IMG/VR virus record: IMGVR_UViG_3300036770_002019
Location: 1 to 64,000 of that record
DNA from: an uncultured virus (IMG/VR IMGVR_UViG_3300036770_002019)
Lineage: Duplodnaviria > Heunggongvirae > Uroviricota > Caudoviricetes > Crassvirales
Length of the DNA: 64,000 bases
Direction: 5' to 3' (one strand)
A program made the position numbers and the translations under genes. This document shows positions 995-61,017 of the stretch, in pieces; the first letter of the stretch is position 1, and each line of letters starts with the position of its first letter. The notes beneath the pieces were generated by a model. That model was not told the DNA's origin. It saw only the letters and a list, made by a program, of their open reading frames with translations, and did not search any database.

Positions 995-1102
995 AACTGT
1001 TTGATTTAGGGGGGACAATTTTATCCCGATAGTTAGGTGGGGTCTTTGAAGTAGTAGGACAACAAACTCGAAAACTCCTAACAAAAAAAATTTTTTATAT
1101 TT

Positions 1103-1211: not shown

Positions 1212-1242
1212 ATTGGCTAATAAATTCTTTTACATATATTTG
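1212..1242 (+). promoter_or_regulatory. Bacteroidota primary-sigma promoter
   Basis: aTTG (1212-1215), 19-nt spacer, TATATTTG (1235-1242). Confidence 0.7.
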
Positions 1243-1249
1243 CAGCACT

Positions 1250-1465
1250 GCCTTACTGAAAGATCACCCTCGATGGCGAAAGTAGATAGAGGGTCAGAAG
1301 TCGGGTTGTAGACTGCGTAGTTGAAATAACACTAAAACATAGCGGTTGAGATGTCCCCGATAGCAGTAAAAAAAGCATCAATATAAACTCAGGGTGGGAT
1401 CAGACTATAGGCTGAAAGAAATGTCCCCACGTAGGCTAAAAACGGCTGAGCGAAATTTGATGTTA
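1250..1465 (+). ncRNA. Candidate structured non-coding RNA or long 5' leader (family unknown)
   Basis: No ORF of 60 aa or more; lies just downstream of a promoter; many nested complementary segments; duplicated ATGTCCCC motif. Confidence 0.5.
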
Positions 1466-1511
1466 ATCAGAACTCAAGGGGGTTATTGTGTCTTGTAACA
1501 AGCAAAGAAGA

Positions 1512-3005
1512 ATGAGTTTATTTATTTTCAGTAAAGCTAAAATCACTTCTAAATCTGTAGACGTAGGAGAAACAGACATAGACTTATACGCCCCACTAAT
1601 ATCTAACCTCACAAACATTACAAGTACTCTAGGGGTAGTAACATTACACTTCAAAGATAGTGGTCCATACTCTAACTTTACTGGGGGAACATCAAACATT
1701 AGAGGATACGAGTACGCTCAAGTAAATCTAGAAGTTAATAACGGTAACGAGCAAGAAGTCATAAAAGACATAGCTCAAGCTCTCCTATCTAAAAAAACAA
1801 TTATCCTAGATTTTGTAACTAGGAACATATCCATAAACAACATCAAATCTATCCTATCCATAAAAAGATTTGATACCCCAACAATACTAACTACAGACCC
1901 ATCTTCAGGAGGAGGACTACCAGTAGGTGGGGACTTAGATCAAGTACTAACCAAACTATCTTCAACAGATGGGGATGTAGATTGGGTATACCCACACACA
2001 CTATTCATAACAGTTAGAAATACTTCTGGGGGAACACTACAAAAAGGAACCCCAGTTCACGCTACAGGAGTTACAGGTACAGTCCCTGACGTAATAGCTG
2101 CAGACGCATCTATCCCTTCAGCTATGCCTGCAACTTACGTTCTAAACGAATCAATAGCTGACAACGCTCAGGGAGTAGCAATAATAGTTGGGACAATTAC
2201 TGGGGTAGATACTTCAACATTCTCAGCTGGGGATGTTGTCTATGTAGCTTCAGGTGGGGGATTCACTAACGTAAAACCTACAGGGACAAACCTAATTCAA
2301 AACCTTGGGGTAGTAACACGATCAAACGTAACTACAGGCTCAGGGGTTGTTTACGGATCAGGAAGATCTAACGATGTCCCTAACCTCCCAACAGGGAAGT
2401 TCTTTATAGGATCAGCTACTAACACAATAGAATCAGCCTACACCCTCCCAACTGCAGATGGGGCAAGCAATCAAATACTAACAACAGATGGGGCAGGTGC
2501 TGTAACCTTTCAAAATCCTAACCCATTAGTTGTATATTCTGACGCTAACCAAATTGATCATACTGGGAGCACATCTAACACATTGATGACTTCTTTCTTA
2601 CTCCCAGGTAACTCACTAGACGTTGGGGATTTATTTTACTTAGTTTCAAGAACTAATCGCCCAACATCTCAGTCAACAAACGCTAACATCCGATATTACG
2701 TAAATACCTCAAACTCTTTATCTGGGGCTACCCTAATAGGTACTGGACCTCAAATGTCAAACACTGCTAGATATTCAGCTTTTGAAAGAACTTACGCCAT
2801 TCTTAATCAAACTACAGATACGAATGCATTCGGGTCAACATCTCTTATCTTAACAGATATAAGTACAACCACTATTGCATTCTCAACACTTGCTGTAGAC
2901 TGGAGTACTGATCAATACGTAATAATAGCTGGGCAGCTTGCTAACATTGCAGACACAATTTCAGTAATATACTTCTTTGCAGAAATAACTAAACAAAAAG
3001 TATAA
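1512..3005 (+). CDS. Virion fibre or decoration-like structural protein
   Basis: Thr/Gly/Ser-rich; GGGLPVGGDLDQVLTKLSSTDGDVDW and LPTADGASNQILTTDGAG fibre-type linkers; central cement-like beta domain; ATG at 1512 preferred over GTG at 1488. Confidence 0.65.
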   Translation: MSLFIFSKAKITSKSVDVGETDIDLYAPLISNLTNITSTLGVVTLHFKDSGPYSNFTGGTSNIRGYEYAQVNLEVNNGNEQEVIKDIAQALLSKKTIILDFVTRNISINNIKSILSIKRFDTPTILTTDPSSGGGLPVGGDLDQVLTKLSSTDGDVDWVYPHTLFITVRNTSGGTLQKGTPVHATGVTGTVPDVIAADASIPSAMPATYVLNESIADNAQGVAIIVGTITGVDTSTFSAGDVVYVASGGGFTNVKPTGTNLIQNLGVVTRSNVTTGSGVVYGSGRSNDVPNLPTGKFFIGSATNTIESAYTLPTADGASNQILTTDGAGAVTFQNPNPLVVYSDANQIDHTGSTSNTLMTSFLLPGNSLDVGDLFYLVSRTNRPTSQSTNANIRYYVNTSNSLSGATLIGTGPQMSNTARYSAFERTYAILNQTTDTNAFGSTSLILTDISTTTIAFSTLAVDWSTDQYVIIAGQLANIADTISVIYFFAEITKQKV

Positions 3006-4925: not shown

Positions 4926-4955
4926 AATCCTCAGCAGTAGCTGGGGATTTTTTTT
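4926..4955 (+). terminator. Rho-independent terminator
   Basis: AATCCTCAGC-AGTA-GCTGGGGATT followed by a T-run. Confidence 0.85.
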
Positions 4956-4968
4956 ACATAACAATCTC

Positions 4969-5002
4969 TATATACTTATCTCAAATATTTGCTAAATTTA
5001 CA
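4969..5002 (+). promoter_or_regulatory. Repeated 34-bp promoter/operator element, copy 2
   Basis: TATATACTTATCTCAAATATTTGCTAAATTTACA; 31/34 identical to 4607-4640. Confidence 0.55.
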
Positions 5003-5714: not shown

Positions 5715-5734
5715 CAACCTTTTTTATATCTTTG
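5702..5734 (+). promoter_or_regulatory. Bacteroidota primary-sigma promoter
   Basis: TTTG (5702-5705), 21-nt spacer, TATCTTTG (5727-5734), upstream of groES. Confidence 0.7.
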
Positions 5735-47766: not shown

Positions 47767-50700
47767 ATGGCAACTTGTCCTAATAGAAATTTAAAAGCTT
47801 GGAAAGATTTAGAAGCTGTTCAAGGAGAATCAATTGCATTAGCGATATGGGATAGATTTGATGGTCGTCCCCCAGAATTCTTTTACTCTACCCCACTTAA
47901 AGAGGGGACAGTAATAACAAAAGGATTTGATGTTCAGACTAGATTTACTGAGGAGCAGAATAATGCTATTCTTGATAGTATTATCTACATGCTCATGGAG
48001 CAAAAAAAGCAAGAAGGCTTTAAGATAGAAGAGCAAATTGGAAATAAATCCACCAAAGGCTCTATCCCTAATTTCTTTCTGCAGCAAGCTTATGAGAATG
48101 AAAATGGAACAGCTGTTAGTTTAGAAGTAGCAGAATCTATTTGGGGGAAAGAGCAAGCATACGAAACGGCTGTAAGAGAAAATCTCCCAGAAGAAACTCA
48201 AAATGCATTGTATGATGAGTGGGTAAATGCTATGGAAGAATCAGATGTTTATGAATCTGAACACCCAGCACGTGAAGCCTTTCTTGATATTTATGAGTTT
48301 TGGAATGGGGGTATTATTACCACAGGTAAAACAGAGAATGAAGTAAAATCTGACATAGCTTTAGGTAATATAGATATTGTTGGGTGGAGAGAACTCCTAT
48401 CTAATAGAATTAAAGAGTTTGGGTATTCTATCTCAAACGTCGAACAAGAGGTAGAATTTGCATCAGACGAGGACATACTAGAAAGAATCTACAGTAAAGC
48501 TAGTATGGAAGAAGACCCTTCAAAAAAATTATCTGGGAGGATGAAAGAGCTATTAGCTACTATCCCTAACAGACAATTAAATTTCCTAGGGTTAGCTAGT
48601 TATTTACCTGCAGATCAGATATATAAAGAACTTGCTACAACATTTGCAGGGTTGCAGAACTTCCCTGAAATGCTTGCTCAAGTAGAGACATTAGCATTAC
48701 ATAAACCTCAGTACGAAGCGGTGTCTGAGTTTATGAAAGGATTGAATAAAAAAGATGCTGCAGCTTTCAGTAGAATCTTTGCACAATCTGCAAATGAGTT
48801 TTTGTTGATTAGAGTAGAAGCTAAAACTCCTGCAGGAGATGTAGTTAGAATATTTAACCCAAACGAAAACAGGATTGAGAGATCTATAGCTACTACTTGG
48901 AAGAACGGAGCTGTAGAATCTAACATAGCTAAACCAAAAGCTATCTACAAAGTAACAGAGGAAGGCCTAGAAATAGATCAAAATAAAGCTAAAGCTATTG
49001 CAGAAAATTGGTTATTGGTTAGAAGAGGTATTGCAGGTGTAGATTCGGTATCATCTACTCAGGGGGAGATATCTAAACCTGTACAAGCTCTAACTGATAT
49101 GCTGTGGAATATGGGGATATACTTAGGTGACCCAGAGATTAAACAAGAAACAGCCAATAACCTACAACAAGTTGTAAATACAGGAATATTTGTAGTAGAG
49201 AAAGGTAGAAGACAAAAACTTACAGGTAGAGCTGCTTATAACTACATTGCAAACAAAGAGGGTAAAAGCTTAGCAAGACTTGTATCTCAATTTGTAGTAC
49301 TTAGCCCTGATGGAACTAAAGTTGAAAAAACTTTACGAACAGTTTCCACTACAATGTATGAGTCTCAAGGCTCAACAGTAAGACACTTAGCATCGTTTGC
49401 CCCATTGTTTTTTGAAATGCGTGGGGATAGTTTTGTTAATGGGAAAGGTAAACAAATCTACCCAATTAATTTACGCCATCATTTAGGTCAAGTATTTGAA
49501 ACTCTTGGGAGTTCTACAGAGGATAAAACTAAGATGATGGATATGTATAGAGAGGATAAATTCTTTGCTCCTGTAGAAGGGAAAAATGAATTTGACTCTA
49601 TACTTTTTAGACTTCTACAATCCCCAGAATTTACTAATGAGTTTAGAGCATTTGATTTAGATGCCCTCAAAGATGTTACTATTCCTGATGGTACTGTAGA
49701 TTACGAAAACTTCTCAAATACAGACTCTCTACGCACAAGATTAATTGCATACATCAACTCAGGTAATAGATCTACAGGATTAATTGCTATCCCTATTCAA
49801 TCTGATAGAAAGAAGTTTACTTTCTTCCCATTTGTACGTACAAAAAATTTAGCTGGTACACGAAAAGGTACTTTTGGGATAACAGGGATGACTAAAAACG
49901 ACATCATACTTGGACTTATAGTGCAAGATATGATGCGTATTGCTCATGGTAGAGGAATTCTTAGCAATCAAGTAACTGAAGACGGACTCCCAAACCCACC
50001 AAAAGACCTTCCTGAAACGTATAAAAAGAATTTAAGTTCCCCAAAATCTATGCAATTTGATGGGACTTTAGTTGGGTCAGAAGGTAACATCCCTATTGTA
50101 ACAGATGCTAGGCTTGAATCTAAAACTGGGGAATACTTCATTAGTGATTACATAGAAGAGTTTCTAACTGATCCAGAAGAGCTTAGAGACATTGAACCAG
50201 AAGTATTTAACGAAATACAGACTAAGATCAATGTAATGGTTGAGAGAGCTAACGAATACTTTCTCAACCAAGCTAAGATTTTAGATACTAAAATAAAAGA
50301 ACAAGGGATAACTCTCCCAACAGAGGCACGAGAGTTTGGGGATAGAATGTCATTACTTGAAAATTATGTATTTGATGAGTTCTTAGGTAGAAACGAGATA
50401 TCTAAAATACTTAGAGGTAGTAGAGCTCACGTAAAAGATATTCAAACCTTTTACAAAAGAGTTGGGCATGCTACTACTCCTGGGATGGAGGTAGCTTTAG
50501 CATCAGATTTAGCTATAAATGGATTGCAGGAAGTAGATGGGATAAGCAACTATGGGATGCCTGATACTTTTATAGAAGCTACTTTTAATGATATTAAGCT
50601 TAACTTGGATGAAGAGATGCGTACACGCGCGATAGAAAGAGCTGAAGCAATTCGAGACGGACTTATTGAAGCTGGGTATGATGCTGATTTTGCACAGTCA

Positions 50701-53700
50701 ATGGCAGAAGAATACATGCCTAATGAAGTAGAGGGTACAGACGCACAGGGGTTGATTTCAATAGATTTCTATAGAGATCTAATGCAAGGTAAAGGAGAGT
50801 GGACAATCAACGAAGAGAAAGCTTACGATGCATACAAACAAGCACCCGAAGGAAGTAAGCAATTTGTATATCAAACAGGCTTTACCCCACAAGGATTTAA
50901 ACCAGGAGATGCAGTACCTTTTTATCCGCAAAAACCTTACTATGAGTACAATGAACTTGTAGGTGGGGTTGTTACGACTGACTCACATAAAAACTCTTAT
51001 CACTTACTATTAGAAGGGGAAACAAAAAGTAACCCTGTAAAAGACAATCTAAGACGGAGAATGGAGGCTGTTGGAGAGTATGCAGGCTTGCAACGTATTG
51101 GGGTAGCTAACTTTGTAACAGCAAAGAAGATTAAGATCAACAAGGTTAATACTTTGACTGATAAAGTTGGTGGGCTATCTAATGTAGGAACTAATACAGT
51201 TAACAGTAGAGGACTAAGATTCCCTCAAGAGATCCCAAAAAAGAAAGCTTCTACTACAATGTTTAACCGTCAGGTTAGAAAGAATACAATATCGAACATT
51301 GATCCTAATCACACGTACACATTAAATGCGGGGTTAGATACTGAAATAAAAATATCAGGCCAAGAAATGCTTGATATGTATCACGCCGCTATAGAACGTA
51401 AAATAGAACTAGAATTTAAGCAAGTAGAGAAAGAGCTTGGGGTAGATAAAATACAGAAAGCTTTAGCTAAACAAGATGTTGAAGAGTATAATGCAGCTTT
51501 AACTTCATTTCTACGTAAGCTTAGAGATAAGATTAAAGACAATAACATTGAAAGGGATCTCCCAACTAACTATGATGCTGGGTTAAGAATTGAGTTAGAT
51601 GAAGCTGGGAGACCTCAATACCAAATTCCACTAGACTTCCCTATATACTTTGAAAAGTATGAAAGAGTACTCCTTGGGATGGCTGTTAATGCTGCATTTA
51701 AACAGAAAGTTCCAGGAATGGAGGCTGTGCAAGTTGCAGAAATTGGGGGATATGCTGAATCTGGGGAGTTAAACTTTTACGAAATCCAAAAAGATAAATC
51801 AGGTACCCCAAGAGTAGTTCACATGGAGGTAATGATTCGTGAGGATATAGCTCGTAAATTTGGGTTAGAGCCTGGACAAGACTTAGACTCACTCCCAGAA
51901 GAACTAAGACGTATTATAGGGTATCGTATCCCCAACCAAGGAAAATCTTCTACAGTAATAATGAAGATTAAACGAATCCTACCAGCTAATTATGCAAAAG
52001 CTGTTATAGTTCCTGCTCAATTAACTAAACTCACAGGATCTGACTTCGATATTGATAAGATGTTCTTGATGTTCCCAGAAGTTAGACAAACAGATGCTGG
52101 ACCAGTTAAAGTTCGTCCTCCTTATGAGGGGATATTAGGAAAAGCTGTCCAGCCTGTAGCGGAATCAATTAATATTTATGCAGGAGATAATCAAAATGCA
52201 GATTTAAGTAATTTCGCAATTCGTCCTTTTGTTGTGCAGGGCGTGGAATACAAATCTGTAGAACAATATTTCCAATCTAAAAAGTTTGAAATTGCCGAAG
52301 TTCTTGAATTTGACACACAAGAAGCTGCTGATAAAGTCTTTGCAATAGCTGATAAGATTATGGAGACATCTTCTGGAGCGCAGTTAAAAAGACTAGGAAA
52401 CACAAGAATACCAGGCGTAACTTTTAACGAAGAAAGTTGGAATGTATATGGAGAAGAAGCCATGTATGTGGGTATTTATGAAAGTTTTAATCAGAACCCA
52501 GAAGCAAGAAAACGTTTATTACAAACAGGCAATGCAGAACTAACCCACAAACAAGATAAATCTAAGTGGGGGAAAAAGTTCCCTGAAATACTAACTAGAG
52601 TTAGGGAAGAACTTAAAAAAGAATATCCGCAAGATGTACCTATAAAACCAACCCAACCTTCACAACAAGATTTAAGCACTCCTACTGCTATCAAACCAGG
52701 AGTAGAAAAATTATTTGATTCTAATCCTGAATTAGCTAATCAAGTATATGAAGCTTTGGGGTTTGATAATTTTACTAATCAGGAAAAAGAAACCTTAATA
52801 GCACAATTAAGAAATCCATTATTTGATTTAGTAAGAGGTACTGAATTGTATAATAAATATAAAGGAGAAACTATACCTTACGGCTATTCAGAAAATTCTT
52901 GGAAATTACTTATTTCTGGAATAACTGAATCTAAACTAGATTTAAATAAAATTTTATTAGGTTATAAACAAAGACTTTTAGAAGAAGAAAACACACCTAT
53001 TAGAGAAACAGGTATTGACGAAAAAACAGGATTACCAAAAGGATTTAATCCTTCTACTGGTGCATTTGAAGGAGGATTTGGAGAAATTTCAGAAAAAGAA
53101 AATGCAATAAAAACTTCTAAAAATAAAATAAATGTTTTAAATAAATTTATACAACAAAAACAACAAGCTCTACAACTATACTCTCAATACTTAGATACAG
53201 GTAAACAAGATATAGAAGGATTTAAAGATTTTGCTAAATCTCCACTACAACAAGATATAAGCATAGATAAAATAACAGATATATCTATCCTAAACAATAT
53301 CATTTTAGATGTAGTAGAAGCTGTTCAAGCTAATCTACTCCACGTAAATGAATCTATGGCTCCATTAGATGAATCTACTCTACCTAGATTAGTTGCAGAT
53401 ATTGAAGCTAAATTCCCAGAATTACAAGCCCCACTAGAGTTTGCTAGTGTAGACATTGAGACAGAAATGGGGATACGAAATACTATAGGTAGAGCTATGC
53501 GTGGATTGTGGGCTAACTTTATAGCTGGTCATGCTGTAGCTGCTTTTGGGGATATTGTAGTAAATGCTAACTACGAATTAAATTTAGATGGGAAAGCATA
53601 CCCAAAACTTATAGGAGTTGCAGGGCAAGAAGTTGCAGAGTTCGACAGAGGAGTTCCTATTAACATGATAGGTTCTAGATACTTATCTGCCGCAGTAGAT

Positions 53701-55401
53701 GCTGCTAAAAAACCTTATCAGTATACACTTAATGATAGAACTTTTACTTACCCTATAGAAGCTTATTGGATGGCCTTCTCTGGGGATACAAAAGCGCTGC
53801 ATGATTTCTTGAATGTCCCAATCATAAGACAGTTTACTGATTTGTTTTATACAAAGTATGGAGCCAAACCTATACTAATGGAGAATGCACTATTAGATGT
53901 TATCCCTAAAATGTATAAAGACAGCTTGAAAGAAGATAGGTTACGTCCAGCTACCTCAATGACAAGAGAAGAACTTGCAAACCCACAAGATCTTCCTCCT
54001 GCTAGACAGTACGAGCTGCTATTAAACATGTTAAAGTTTAGAGAGGCTGGTAGATCTATGACTCAAATGTTTAAGGTTATTGCCCCAGATTCTATGGATG
54101 GTATGAACAGCATAGATTCTATTAAATCATACAGAAGTAGACAGAATCAGTTTAACCCTAACATTACAAGCCCAGAAAATCAAATCTTCATAAACCCAAA
54201 TGCTCCTTTAGAGCCTGTAGTAGATCAATTTATAGGACAAGTAAGTGTATATGGAATGCAGAGAGGGTTTTCTAATCTCTTTTTGGATATTGCAGATATG
54301 GCTGCTAAGATATTCCCCATGACTGTATCCCCAGCTATGGATAATCTGGACATGAGAATAATGGATTTAACTGGGAATACACAATTAAATCCTGAAGCGC
54401 ATAGAGATATTAGAAGAGCAGCTATGCTAAGTGTATTTGCTCAAGAAGAATCCCCATTAAGAGAATTCTTCAGTGATACGCACCTAAAACTAAACTATCT
54501 AAACAAGGATAGTAACTTGGTTACAAAGCTCAGGGACTTGAAAGTAAAGTATCCTAAACTTGCAGAAAACTTGTTTATTAGAAAGTTTGTGGAGAACAAT
54601 GATAATGACCTCCCAGAAACTAAAGTGTTCTTGTTAGATTTCGATACATCTTATCAAATGACTAGGTTTGAAAAAGATGCAGTAACTTTAGCAGCATACA
54701 GATTACTTAAACGACCAGAAGAAGTTGTTGGGAAAGATGCTTCGATAGAAGATAGACAATCTATAATAAACTTAGCTGAAGATCTGTTGATGAACACATT
54801 AATAGTTCATGGGTTTAAACAAACGACTGGTTCATACCAAGATCTTATACCTGTAACATTCTTTACAGATAATAGGTTTGCACGTTACAACAATCCTGGG
54901 GAAAGACTTGGATCCCCAGTTAAATACTTTAGACAGCAGATGACTTCTATGTATACCATAGATACTTTTGATAACTTTGCAGTAGATTTTATACGCCAAA
55001 GCTTTCAAACGTCTCCTGGTGGATACACATTAGTCCAAGGTATACGAAAGAAAGCAACACCTAATGAAATCGTTTTAAGTGATAAAGACAAGATTAGAAT
55101 GTACAGAAATGGGTACCCAATTCCTTTTATTACAGTGACAAACTCTACAACTAACGAAACATTCTTGTACGCATCTGGTCATATTTTAACTTCAGGAACT
55201 GTAGAAGGAAAGTATGTAAAAGTTAATCCTTTAGGGGTAGACAGTAAATTAATAGAAGCAACAAACCCTGATAAGTCTGTAATCAATGAACAAGGATTAC
55301 CACTATCATCTATTGTTATGACTTCTACAACTACAGGAATTTCAACTAATGCAGGCTCAATAGCCTCTACAGAGAACCAACAATCTATAATCTGCAAATA
55401 A
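47767..55401 (+). CDS. Virion-packaged DNA-dependent RNA polymerase (crAss-like double-psi beta-barrel type) with inserted domains
   Basis: TDAQG, GYRIPNQG, catalytic GSDFDIDK (Asp at 52042), AAVDAAK; 2544 aa. Confidence 0.92.
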   Translation: MATCPNRNLKAWKDLEAVQGESIALAIWDRFDGRPPEFFYSTPLKEGTVITKGFDVQTRFTEEQNNAILDSIIYMLMEQKKQEGFKIEEQIGNKSTKGSIPNFFLQQAYENENGTAVSLEVAESIWGKEQAYETAVRENLPEETQNALYDEWVNAMEESDVYESEHPAREAFLDIYEFWNGGIITTGKTENEVKSDIALGNIDIVGWRELLSNRIKEFGYSISNVEQEVEFASDEDILERIYSKASMEEDPSKKLSGRMKELLATIPNRQLNFLGLASYLPADQIYKELATTFAGLQNFPEMLAQVETLALHKPQYEAVSEFMKGLNKKDAAAFSRIFAQSANEFLLIRVEAKTPAGDVVRIFNPNENRIERSIATTWKNGAVESNIAKPKAIYKVTEEGLEIDQNKAKAIAENWLLVRRGIAGVDSVSSTQGEISKPVQALTDMLWNMGIYLGDPEIKQETANNLQQVVNTGIFVVEKGRRQKLTGRAAYNYIANKEGKSLARLVSQFVVLSPDGTKVEKTLRTVSTTMYESQGSTVRHLASFAPLFFEMRGDSFVNGKGKQIYPINLRHHLGQVFETLGSSTEDKTKMMDMYREDKFFAPVEGKNEFDSILFRLLQSPEFTNEFRAFDLDALKDVTIPDGTVDYENFSNTDSLRTRLIAYINSGNRSTGLIAIPIQSDRKKFTFFPFVRTKNLAGTRKGTFGITGMTKNDIILGLIVQDMMRIAHGRGILSNQVTEDGLPNPPKDLPETYKKNLSSPKSMQFDGTLVGSEGNIPIVTDARLESKTGEYFISDYIEEFLTDPEELRDIEPEVFNEIQTKINVMVERANEYFLNQAKILDTKIKEQGITLPTEAREFGDRMSLLENYVFDEFLGRNEISKILRGSRAHVKDIQTFYKRVGHATTPGMEVALASDLAINGLQEVDGISNYGMPDTFIEATFNDIKLNLDEEMRTRAIERAEAIRDGLIEAGYDADFAQSMAEEYMPNEVEGTDAQGLISIDFYRDLMQGKGEWTINEEKAYDAYKQAPEGSKQFVYQTGFTPQGFKPGDAVPFYPQKPYYEYNELVGGVVTTDSHKNSYHLLLEGETKSNPVKDNLRRRMEAVGEYAGLQRIGVANFVTAKKIKINKVNTLTDKVGGLSNVGTNTVNSRGLRFPQEIPKKKASTTMFNRQVRKNTISNIDPNHTYTLNAGLDTEIKISGQEMLDMYHAAIERKIELEFKQVEKELGVDKIQKALAKQDVEEYNAALTSFLRKLRDKIKDNNIERDLPTNYDAGLRIELDEAGRPQYQIPLDFPIYFEKYERVLLGMAVNAAFKQKVPGMEAVQVAEIGGYAESGELNFYEIQKDKSGTPRVVHMEVMIREDIARKFGLEPGQDLDSLPEELRRIIGYRIPNQGKSSTVIMKIKRILPANYAKAVIVPAQLTKLTGSDFDIDKMFLMFPEVRQTDAGPVKVRPPYEGILGKAVQPVAESINIYAGDNQNADLSNFAIRPFVVQGVEYKSVEQYFQSKKFEIAEVLEFDTQEAADKVFAIADKIMETSSGAQLKRLGNTRIPGVTFNEESWNVYGEEAMYVGIYESFNQNPEARKRLLQTGNAELTHKQDKSKWGKKFPEILTRVREELKKEYPQDVPIKPTQPSQQDLSTPTAIKPGVEKLFDSNPELANQVYEALGFDNFTNQEKETLIAQLRNPLFDLVRGTELYNKYKGETIPYGYSENSWKLLISGITESKLDLNKILLGYKQRLLEEENTPIRETGIDEKTGLPKGFNPSTGAFEGGFGEISEKENAIKTSKNKINVLNKFIQQKQQALQLYSQYLDTGKQDIEGFKDFAKSPLQQDISIDKITDISILNNIILDVVEAVQANLLHVNESMAPLDESTLPRLVADIEAKFPELQAPLEFASVDIETEMGIRNTIGRAMRGLWANFIAGHAVAAFGDIVVNANYELNLDGKAYPKLIGVAGQEVAEFDRGVPINMIGSRYLSAAVDAAKKPYQYTLNDRTFTYPIEAYWMAFSGDTKALHDFLNVPIIRQFTDLFYTKYGAKPILMENALLDVIPKMYKDSLKEDRLRPATSMTREELANPQDLPPARQYELLLNMLKFREAGRSMTQMFKVIAPDSMDGMNSIDSIKSYRSRQNQFNPNITSPENQIFINPNAPLEPVVDQFIGQVSVYGMQRGFSNLFLDIADMAAKIFPMTVSPAMDNLDMRIMDLTGNTQLNPEAHRDIRRAAMLSVFAQEESPLREFFSDTHLKLNYLNKDSNLVTKLRDLKVKYPKLAENLFIRKFVENNDNDLPETKVFLLDFDTSYQMTRFEKDAVTLAAYRLLKRPEEVVGKDASIEDRQSIINLAEDLLMNTLIVHGFKQTTGSYQDLIPVTFFTDNRFARYNNPGERLGSPVKYFRQQMTSMYTIDTFDNFAVDFIRQSFQTSPGGYTLVQGIRKKATPNEIVLSDKDKIRMYRNGYPIPFITVTNSTTNETFLYASGHILTSGTVEGKYVKVNPLGVDSKLIEATNPDKSVINEQGLPLSSIVMTSTTTGISTNAGSIASTENQQSIICK
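52168..52620 (+). other. NADAR (YbiA-like) domain inserted in-frame in the virion RNAP
   Basis: LSNFAIRPF...YKSVEQYFQSKK...LKRLG...W...M...SFNQNP..RKRLLQTG.AELTH...W...L..VREEL. Confidence 0.8.
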
Positions 55402-60320: not shown

Positions 60321-61017
60321 TGTATAATTGTATTTGTTCGCTATCTGTTAATTGTGTAGGTAAAGTAAACCAATTTATTTTAGACTCAAGCATTTCATCA
60401 ATTTTAACGAAGTGCCCATTCCCAAAAAACCCAGCTCTCCCAAAATTATACATTTCTGCAGCTGGGTGAGCTGATATCAGTACCTTATCTTCAGGGATGT
60501 ACTTTTTATACTTCTCAGCATGTTTACCCCAAAGGACAAAAATAGTGTTAGGTTTATGTTTTACAATATGCTTGATTACATTAGTTGTAAAAAATGTCCA
60601 TAAATGAGAATGACTCCCAGGAGTATCTTTTACAACACTTAAAGCTGTATTAAAAAGAAGTACCCCTTGTTTACCCCAATGTGTCAAAGAGTAATCAAAT
60701 TCATCTGGGGTGTAGTTATATTGAGCGTTTAACTCTCTTGTGATAACTTTAAGACTAGGGGGTATTGGGGTAGATTTAACCCCAAATGATACCCCAATAG
60801 CTTGTCCATTATGATAAGGATCTTGCCCAAGTATAACTACTTTAACTTCTGACAGTTGGCATAATTCAAAAGCTTTGAATGTATCTGCCCCATCAGGGTA
60901 TACCTTAGAAGTTAATTTATCTTTTTTTATTGTATCTTGAAGAGTTTGAAACTCTTTTGAAGAAAATAGGGGGGACATTACATCCCCCCAATCTCCTAAC
61001 TTATCTTTCCAAGTCAT
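60313..61017 (-). CDS. ung: Uracil-DNA glycosylase (family 1)
   Basis: VKVVILGQDPYH, IPPSL, QGVLLFNTALSV, FVLWGKHA, SAHPAA. Confidence 0.95.
   Translation of the reverse strand: MTWKDKLGDWGDVMSPLFSSKEFQTLQDTIKKDKLTSKVYPDGADTFKAFELCQLSEVKVVILGQDPYHNGQAIGVSFGVKSTPIPPSLKVITRELNAQYNYTPDEFDYSLTHWGKQGVLLFNTALSVVKDTPGSHSHLWTFFTTNVIKHIVKHKPNTIFVLWGKHAEKYKKYIPEDKVLISAHPAAEMYNFGRAGFFGNGHFVKIDEMLESKINWFTLPTQLTDSEQIQLYND

Follow-up and report, generated by a model that had tools for sequence, protein, structure and literature searches.

A small group of environmental crAss-like phages carries an RNA of about 240 bases with a conserved two-part fold. In the stretch of 64,000 nucleotides analyzed here (the window), which belongs to a virus record of 86.7 kb, this RNA occupies positions 1250-1490, and it almost certainly represents a genuine structured RNA family. 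By its gene content the source is a distant crAss-like phage; its capsid protein shares 30% identity, and its terminase 42%, with counterparts in gut crAss-like phages. PHROG and Pfam matches identify a peptidase/endolysin, GroES, large terminase, portal, major head protein and six giant virion proteins in a plus-strand block running from 1512 to 59966, and DNA polymerase A, a DnaB-like helicase, other helicases, UDG and exonucleases in a minus-strand block. One giant protein of 2544 aa (47767-55401), flanked by five others of 690-2036 aa, contains the sequence SDFDIDK at residue 1426, which fits the DFDxD motif of crAss-like virion RNA polymerases; the phi14:2 preprint places catalysis by the virion polymerase at a DFDID motif (10.1101/2020.03.07.982082). 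The RNA sits in the sole divergent intergenic region, 995-1511, and is present in the window's genome as a single copy.

The initial annotation had proposed a promoter-driven RNA of two domains with an internal repeat. All of the helix arms it listed were found upon re-reading the sequence, and the minimum free energy fold of 1250-1465 on the plus strand (-50.9 kcal/mol) contains these helices and reproduces both domains (Table 1). The expectation that this fold would outperform shuffled controls failed for the single sequence, which has a z-score of -1.02, with 34 of 200 dinucleotide shuffles folding as well; the minus-strand fold of the same interval has a z-score of +0.29. Because its stability is no better than that of shuffles, the structure claim is not carried by the single sequence.

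Table 1. Coordinates of the RNA, its helices and neighboring elements in the window
Feature	Position	Strand	Remark
Conserved upstream block	1005-1100		A/T tract AAAAAAAATTTTTT and leftward -7-box-like site
-7 promoter box TATATTTG	1235-1242	+	TAnnTTTG type, 10 nt before P1
Domain 1	1253-1369	+	Multi-branch fold closed by P1
P1	TTACTG 1253-1258 / CAGTAA 1364-1369	+	Domain 1 closing helix
P2	ACCCTC 1266-1271 / GAGGGT 1289-1294	+	Domain 1
Junction J2/3	CAGAAGT 1295-1301	+	Domain 1
P3 base	CGGG 1302-1305 / CCCG 1356-1359	+	Initially listed as TCGGG 1301-1305 / CCCGA 1356-1360
P3 inner helix	GACTGC 1311-1316 / GCGGTT 1342-1347	+	Initially listed as ACTGC 1312-1316 / GCGGT 1342-1346
P3b hairpin	TAGT 1318-1321 / ACTA 1331-1334	+	Domain 1
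Domain 2	1375-1463	+	Long irregular hairpin closed by P4
P4	GCATCAA 1375-1381 / TTGATGT 1457-1463	+	Domain 2 closing helix
P5	CTCAG 1388-1392 / CTGAG 1446-1450	+	Domain 2
P6	GTGGG 1394-1398 / CCCAC 1426-1430	+	Domain 2
P6a	GAC 1403-1405 / GTC 1423-1425	+	Domain 2
Conserved 3' tail TAATCAGAAC..CAAGGGGGTTATTGTGTC	1464-1490	+	G-run AAGGGGG at 1476-1482
First rightward gene, tail-fibre-like protein	1512-3005	+	ATG 1512 aligns with the start in homologs
Intrinsic terminator	4928-4955	+	-12.6 kcal/mol, eight T; 3.4 kb downstream of the RNA

Across the homologs, however, this ordinary fold stability is outweighed by covariation in the aligned sequences. The structure is kept in 15 further distinct homologs through compensatory double changes. 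Alignment A2 comprises 15 sequences with a structure of 53 pairs. Pairing is possible in 95.3% of its cells, and double changes occur in 26 of the pairs, as compared to an average of 13 such pairs in shuffled alignments, none of which reached 26 in 500 attempts, and only 4-9 when pairing partners were slid by 1-3 columns. An independent RNAalifold prediction recovered 55 pairs, 26 with compensatory changes. Both domains contribute, with double changes in 18 of 33 pairs of domain 1 (16 sequences, including the divergent member L131) and in 14 of 21 pairs of domain 2, where 97% of cells pair in alignment A5, fitted to covariance model R1, a model of domain 2 alone. Since the frequent G-U pairs (UG in 15/15 sequences at columns 90-169, for example, and GU in 14 at columns 201-297) would be C-A mismatches on the other strand, the structure is assigned to the plus strand. 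No reading frame is open across all homologs, and the small ORFs at 1183-1311, 1394-1498 and 1253-1381 (minus strand) were rejected as genes on the grounds that no frame is kept open.

The same features bear on whether the element might act as single-stranded DNA, for example as an origin of replication, a site for packaging or a hairpin used as promoter by the virion polymerase. The sole divergent intergenic region, which lies near the cumulative GC skew minimum, would be a suitable place for such an element, and denatured DNA is reported to serve as a template for the virion polymerase of phi14:2 in vitro (10.1101/2020.03.07.982082). The long-range helices (P1 spans 110 nt), the one-strand G-U (G-T) pairs and the orientation fixed after a promoter box nevertheless fit an RNA better, and a DNA-level role is regarded as extremely unlikely.

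Whole helices are exchanged between members of the family. P1 reads GTGGC/GCCAC, GTAAC/GTTAC or GTTAT/ATAAC in homologs, and P4 reads GCGTTGA/TCAACGT or GCCTGTA/TACAGGT. L131, the most divergent member, has P1, P2 (ATCTTG/CAAGAT), P4, P5 and P6 swapped wholesale and keeps J2/3 and the P3 loops. P6a, which forms part of the motif shared by the two domains, covaries as well, from GAC/GTC to GGC/GCC in L090 and L112, AGA/TCT in L115 and ACT/AGT in L131. Within domain 1, an alternative GAC/GTC pairing competes with the inner P3 helix; as L131 swaps GACTGC/GCGGTT for GGCTAT/ATGGCT and all other members fit both arrangements, the GACTGC/GCGGTT pairing is favored. Most homologs have an additional hairpin, P1a, that is absent from the window. 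In L090 (1530-1580) and at the equivalent place in L112, an extra hairpin of 51 nt is inserted at the P3b tip, and both have another hairpin that follows domain 2 and precedes the G-run. Many functional RNAs have arms that vary in length in this way. Around 100 positions in the loops and junctions are invariant in the homolog alignment, and a self-complementary CTATAG lies in the domain 2 loop of most members.

The two domains were also said to share the motif GGG..AGACT...GARATGTCCCC, and this motif is conserved in both across the homologs. The internal repeat is thus real and conserved, and consists of one helix module (GGG, bulge, GAC ... GARATGTC, CCC) present in each domain; it is a single module as opposed to a whole-domain duplication, and the domain 2 covariance model does not detect domain 1. 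The 64-kb window contains ATGTCCCC at 1351 and 1421 and a minus-strand copy at 60971, an occurrence that is unremarkable by itself because 10 of 100 shuffles reach three copies. A second internal repeat was seen in domain 2, where TAGGCT at 1407-1412 (hairpin loop) and 1432-1437 (long junction) is unpaired and near-invariant in homologs; its AGGCT core falls in both the 17-nt loop and the 15-nt junction of this domain. The suggestion of a tandem aptamer does not hold in the sense of homologous aptamers, since only the one helix module is shared and model R1 misses domain 1 in 16 members. The RNA does resemble tandem riboswitches, of which the glycine riboswitch is an example, in having two adjacent 5'-leader domains with a shared motif and highly conserved junctions. 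It differs from them in that its domains are not homologous as wholes, in that no clear expression platform was found after it, and in having no consistent downstream gene function.

Homologs were collected by several routes. A protein-guided scan with the downstream gene led to one contig whose upstream region is ~80-85% identical to 1263-1484, pattern scans on conserved stretches found real homologs on six IMG/VR contigs, and 15 of 18 pattern matches in the metagenome collection were real. Following removal of duplicates, 16 distinct sequences including the window remain. Matches lacking an HMM match were set aside as chance; these were L092, L101, L103, L117 and L132, some 79 of 84 matches to a 15-mer, and all eight pattern matches in the prokaryote genome collection, which lay on unrelated contigs with no HMM or model match. 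A blastn search of 1000-1600 against 50,697 catalogued phage records gave no match. As compared to L093, the window is 79% identical in the RNA, 68% in the DNA of the adjacent gene and 48% upstream. Close relatives in four other metagenome runs keep 1164-1490, with 1097-1165 and 1491-1597 replaced or diverged; no RNA run is among the sequencing runs that contain the stretch. In run X5, loose ends at window positions 1321 and 1359 mark a divergent core variant with AATCGGGTTGTAAACT replacing AAGTCGGGTTGTAGACT. The RNA family is wider than the search patterns reached.

In all 14 homologs with flanks that were examined, the upstream genes run leftward and the downstream genes run rightward, and the placement of the RNA at the head of the structural gene block is upheld. 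The first downstream gene is of five kinds depending on the lineage: a tail-fibre-like gene, an Amidase_2 lysin, and three unrelated proteins without assigned function. Because the RNA keeps a fixed 5' place ahead of five different first genes, it goes with the transcription unit and not with any one gene. In the window, the whole first-gene protein has no Pfam or PHROG match, and tblastn aligned its residues ~150-310 with annotated tail-fibre-like proteins; GTG 1488 is an in-frame alternative start. In L094, a 14-codon ORF downstream of the leader RNA at ~1700-1745, MLNSEISFIFAINL, retains the first codons of the tail-fibre-like gene (xxFIFxx), with the gene itself gone. It looks like a deletion remnant in which the start beside the G-run is in frame with the ORF.

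Upstream of the RNA, the initial annotation had described a consensus promoter. TAnnTTTG is the consensus of the Bacteroidota -7 box, and we take TATATTTG to be a box of this type. The description holds for this box only: a sigma-70 scan scored just 9/12 at 1213-1240, which does not exceed shuffled sequence. Equivalent boxes in homologs are TAGCTTTG, TATACTTG, TACCTTTG, TACTCTTG, TAACTTTG, TATATTAG and TATATTTA, and in all members a T-rich tract and a TAnnTTTG-like box precede P1 by 4-10 nt. From its sequence context, the RNA would thus stand at the very beginning of a transcription unit. In all members the first base of P1 coincides with the expected start site or lies a few nt from it, as would suit a structure that does nothing except shield the late mRNA from 5'-end-dependent decay. 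A simple hairpin would suffice for that task, however, and the two elaborate domains with their ~100 invariant loop and junction positions exceed the need; stabilization alone is very unlikely to be the function.

The window lineage has a further arrangement in front of the RNA, where two copies of TATATTTGCA (1126-1135 and 1235-1244) bound a 109-bp unit. This unit contains a terminator, with a strong hairpin at 1171-1200, and starts with GTCTCACACCCGACT (1137-1151), which is complementary at 12 of 15 positions to the conserved P3 strand at 1299-1313. The upstream copy, with its -7 box at 1126, has the better context, a full TTTG-19-TAnnTTTG promoter (TTTG 19 nt upstream), as compared to the poor upstream element of the proximal 1235 box. 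The 109-bp unit is absent from most homologs, and close relatives in other runs keep 1166-1245. It may be a small RNA unit of ~60 nt, or else a terminator-promoter cassette whose insertion separated the leader from the ancestral promoter.

No intrinsic terminator was found between the RNA and the first gene. The terminator at 4928-4955, which rests on a custom script and was not listed at this site by a standard terminator scan, ends in TGGGGATTTTTTTT, the same 14 letters as in the 1171-1200 terminator. A AAATATTTG box follows ~40 nt past it and makes 4928-5000 a second terminator-promoter cassette. In L002, the first 4 kb contain no comparably clear terminator. Within the block, intergenic regions contain additional -7-box-like sites at 5727, 9514, 14181 and 26063. 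The proposal that the RNA serves a ~58-kb block is therefore only partly retained: the RNA heads the rightward block, but the terminator and the internal -7-box-like sites intervene. The RNA may thus head just a 3.7-kb unit unless there is read-through of this strong terminator.

On the other side of the intergenic region, the conserved upstream block is alignable in 12 of the 14 members aligned (the window and 11 homologs) and differs in L090 and L112. Within it are a GGGG...CCC hairpin, GGTGGGGTCTTTGAA, and, on the reverse strand, a TAnnTTTG-like box with AGTGCG after it. The block probably represents a leftward promoter with a short leader, and GTCCCC-like motifs would be present in the leftward transcript too. 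A structured leftward leader was considered and rejected, as RNAalifold predicted nothing for the minus strand and, for the plus strand, no more than a weak GGGG/CCCC hairpin.

Searches against known RNAs support the earlier view that this RNA is unclassified. At gathering thresholds, Rfam 15 has no match in the whole window, and searching 1000-1600 at E up to 10 gives nothing inside 1250-1465; the weak matches to RT-14 (from 1455) and snoR9 are at or beyond the 3' edge of that interval. The statement that it is not a tRNA is borne out by ARAGORN, which finds no tRNA or tmRNA genes in the window. Two other suggestions find no support: a packaging RNA of the phi29 type, expected in a phage without a classical terminase-portal recognition system, is disfavored by the ordinary large terminase and portal found here and by the lack of a pRNA match in Rfam, and a ribozyme appears unlikely from the lack of an Rfam match to known catalytic cores. 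Resemblances to a K-turn, tetraloop-receptor, hammerhead core or T-loop were judged by eye and dropped, since the conserved positions disagree with the consensus of each. A literature search found no published description of this RNA. A related published collection is the DNAVirus_N set of viral structured-RNA candidates, obtained by covariation from IMG/VR intergenic regions and including many 5' leaders (PMC10690425); since its entries span 29-151 nt, at most part of the RNA could be included. Six motif strings are absent from six of its supplement files, and three more files lie outside that search, so that a partial overlap is possible. We regard the RNA as a new family within an established category, the leader RNAs of phages.

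Size and ornateness might instead suggest a stable non-coding RNA that is processed out of the 5' portion of the late transcript and acts in trans or as an RNA-only assembly. GOLLD and ROOL are large, ornate, phage-borne non-coding RNAs that stand free near tRNA genes. The RNA described here is likewise phage-borne, exceeds 200 nt and has a complex conserved fold with many invariant unpaired bases; its 5'-terminal P1 would protect the end, and the CTATAG loop could make loop-loop contacts. It is, however, much smaller than GOLLD and ROOL and fixed at a transcript 5' end, Rfam returned no match to GOLLD, ROOL, OLE, raiA or 6S, and no terminator of its own or recognizable processing site was found. 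A precedent of sorts comes from the marine crAss-like phage phi14:2, for which the accessible sections of the preprint report abundant long non-coding transcripts at the g004-g006 junctions (10.1101/2020.03.07.982082). As described there, these are early transcripts of the rightward, replication-side unit and are longer than the leader RNA, and neither nhmmer nor the domain 2 model found a homolog in the last 15.4 kb and first 8 kb of phi14:2. A free-standing RNA of this sort is quite unlikely.

Conservation extends beyond P4 into the 3' tail, among close relatives as far as 1490. In all 11 representatives examined, 4-5 consecutive G lie 10-44 nt after P4. One reading of this arrangement is a riboswitch-like or factor-sensing leader, in which the domains would recognize either a small molecule or a protein of phage or host origin, and binding would alter access to the G-run tail and the start of the first cistron, so tuning translation or mRNA stability of the late unit. 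The 5'-terminal position of the element and its near-invariant junction and loop nucleotides, as in aptamers, are consistent with such a leader, as is the presence of the G-run in all lineages at variable distance with a GTG, ATG or TTG following 3-5 nt later in six of them. In L090, moreover, the tail carries GGGGACAT, the exact complement of ATGTCCCC. Against it, no terminator, sequestering helix or other clear expression platform was found after the RNA, and the G-run tail was rejected as a switch strand: its complementarity to the body does not exceed that of shuffled tails (z from +0.27 to -2.07 in 11 sequences, +0.27 in the window), with best targets that differ between lineages. As the phage genes are generally without Shine-Dalgarno motifs (7 of 86 have one), it is doubtful that the G-run serves in ribosome binding. 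In L093 and L115 the start-like codon that follows it is not in the frame of the main ATG, and in L100 this codon opens just four codons. The five unrelated first genes share no single pathway or metabolic theme. Both the ligand-binding leader and the gating of its tail are considered unlikely.

We tentatively favor, at rather less than even probability, an action in cis on the host RNA polymerase or on late-operon expression. Here, 1250-1490 would form the 5' end of the rightward transcript for lysis, capsid and virion proteins, and the leader RNA would work in cis on the very host RNA polymerase molecule transcribing it, either unaided or together with an early protein of the phage. The leader would set elongation and termination behavior, as processive antitermination RNAs do, or would otherwise gate expression of the late unit; transcription past the 4928-4955 terminator and late-gene timing could follow. 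The phi14:2 preprint assigns middle and late genes to the host polymerase and sigma-A-type promoters (10.1101/2020.03.07.982082). By analogy, the host enzyme would transcribe such genes in this phage too. The cis-acting mechanism is ranked first because a host-type promoter alone gives no delay and because a terminator lies downstream. Read-through of that terminator is not required, given the internal -7-box-like sites. A point against a cis mechanism is that, in the window lineage, the 109-bp unit with its own terminator separates the better promoter from the RNA. No antiterminator-like or NusG-like protein was recognized among the 49 proteins scanned with Pfam.

A known system of this type is put of bacteriophage HK022, a processive antitermination RNA with putL/putR made of two simple stem-loops of ~70 nt. 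Like put, the crAss-like RNA is promoter-proximal, has two structured units, leads a long phage operon and is indifferent to the gene that follows, its position 4-10 nt behind a -7 box at the head of the rightward block being constant in all members. It differs in that no likeness of sequence or fold is seen and no Rfam match was obtained (the presence of a put model in Rfam is unconfirmed), in being about three times longer with a multi-branch domain 1, and in its host, which for put belongs to the Enterobacteria and here to the Bacteroidota.

Large RNAs that have a complex fold proven by covariation and belong to no family are uncommon, and earlier ones led to riboswitch, ribozyme and polymerase-binding classes. 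It is possible, if doubtful, that this RNA is the founding member of a new class of operon leaders through which aquatic Bacteroidota crAss-like phages control the host RNA polymerase on late genes. Such a leader could, with no greater confidence in the combined reading, be either a polymerase-modifying RNA, put-like with an unrelated fold, or a sensor of an infection-stage signal. The immediate reach is limited, as the family has few members, all of them from uncultured environmental phages. In the available text on phi14:2, host-type promoters are reported and no timing device is described (10.1101/2020.03.07.982082). If true, the proposed role would provide the first lead on the timing of late transcription from ordinary host-type promoters in crAss-like phages, and the conserved leader RNA would be a concrete, testable candidate for the switch from the virion polymerase, which acts early, to the host polymerase, which acts late.
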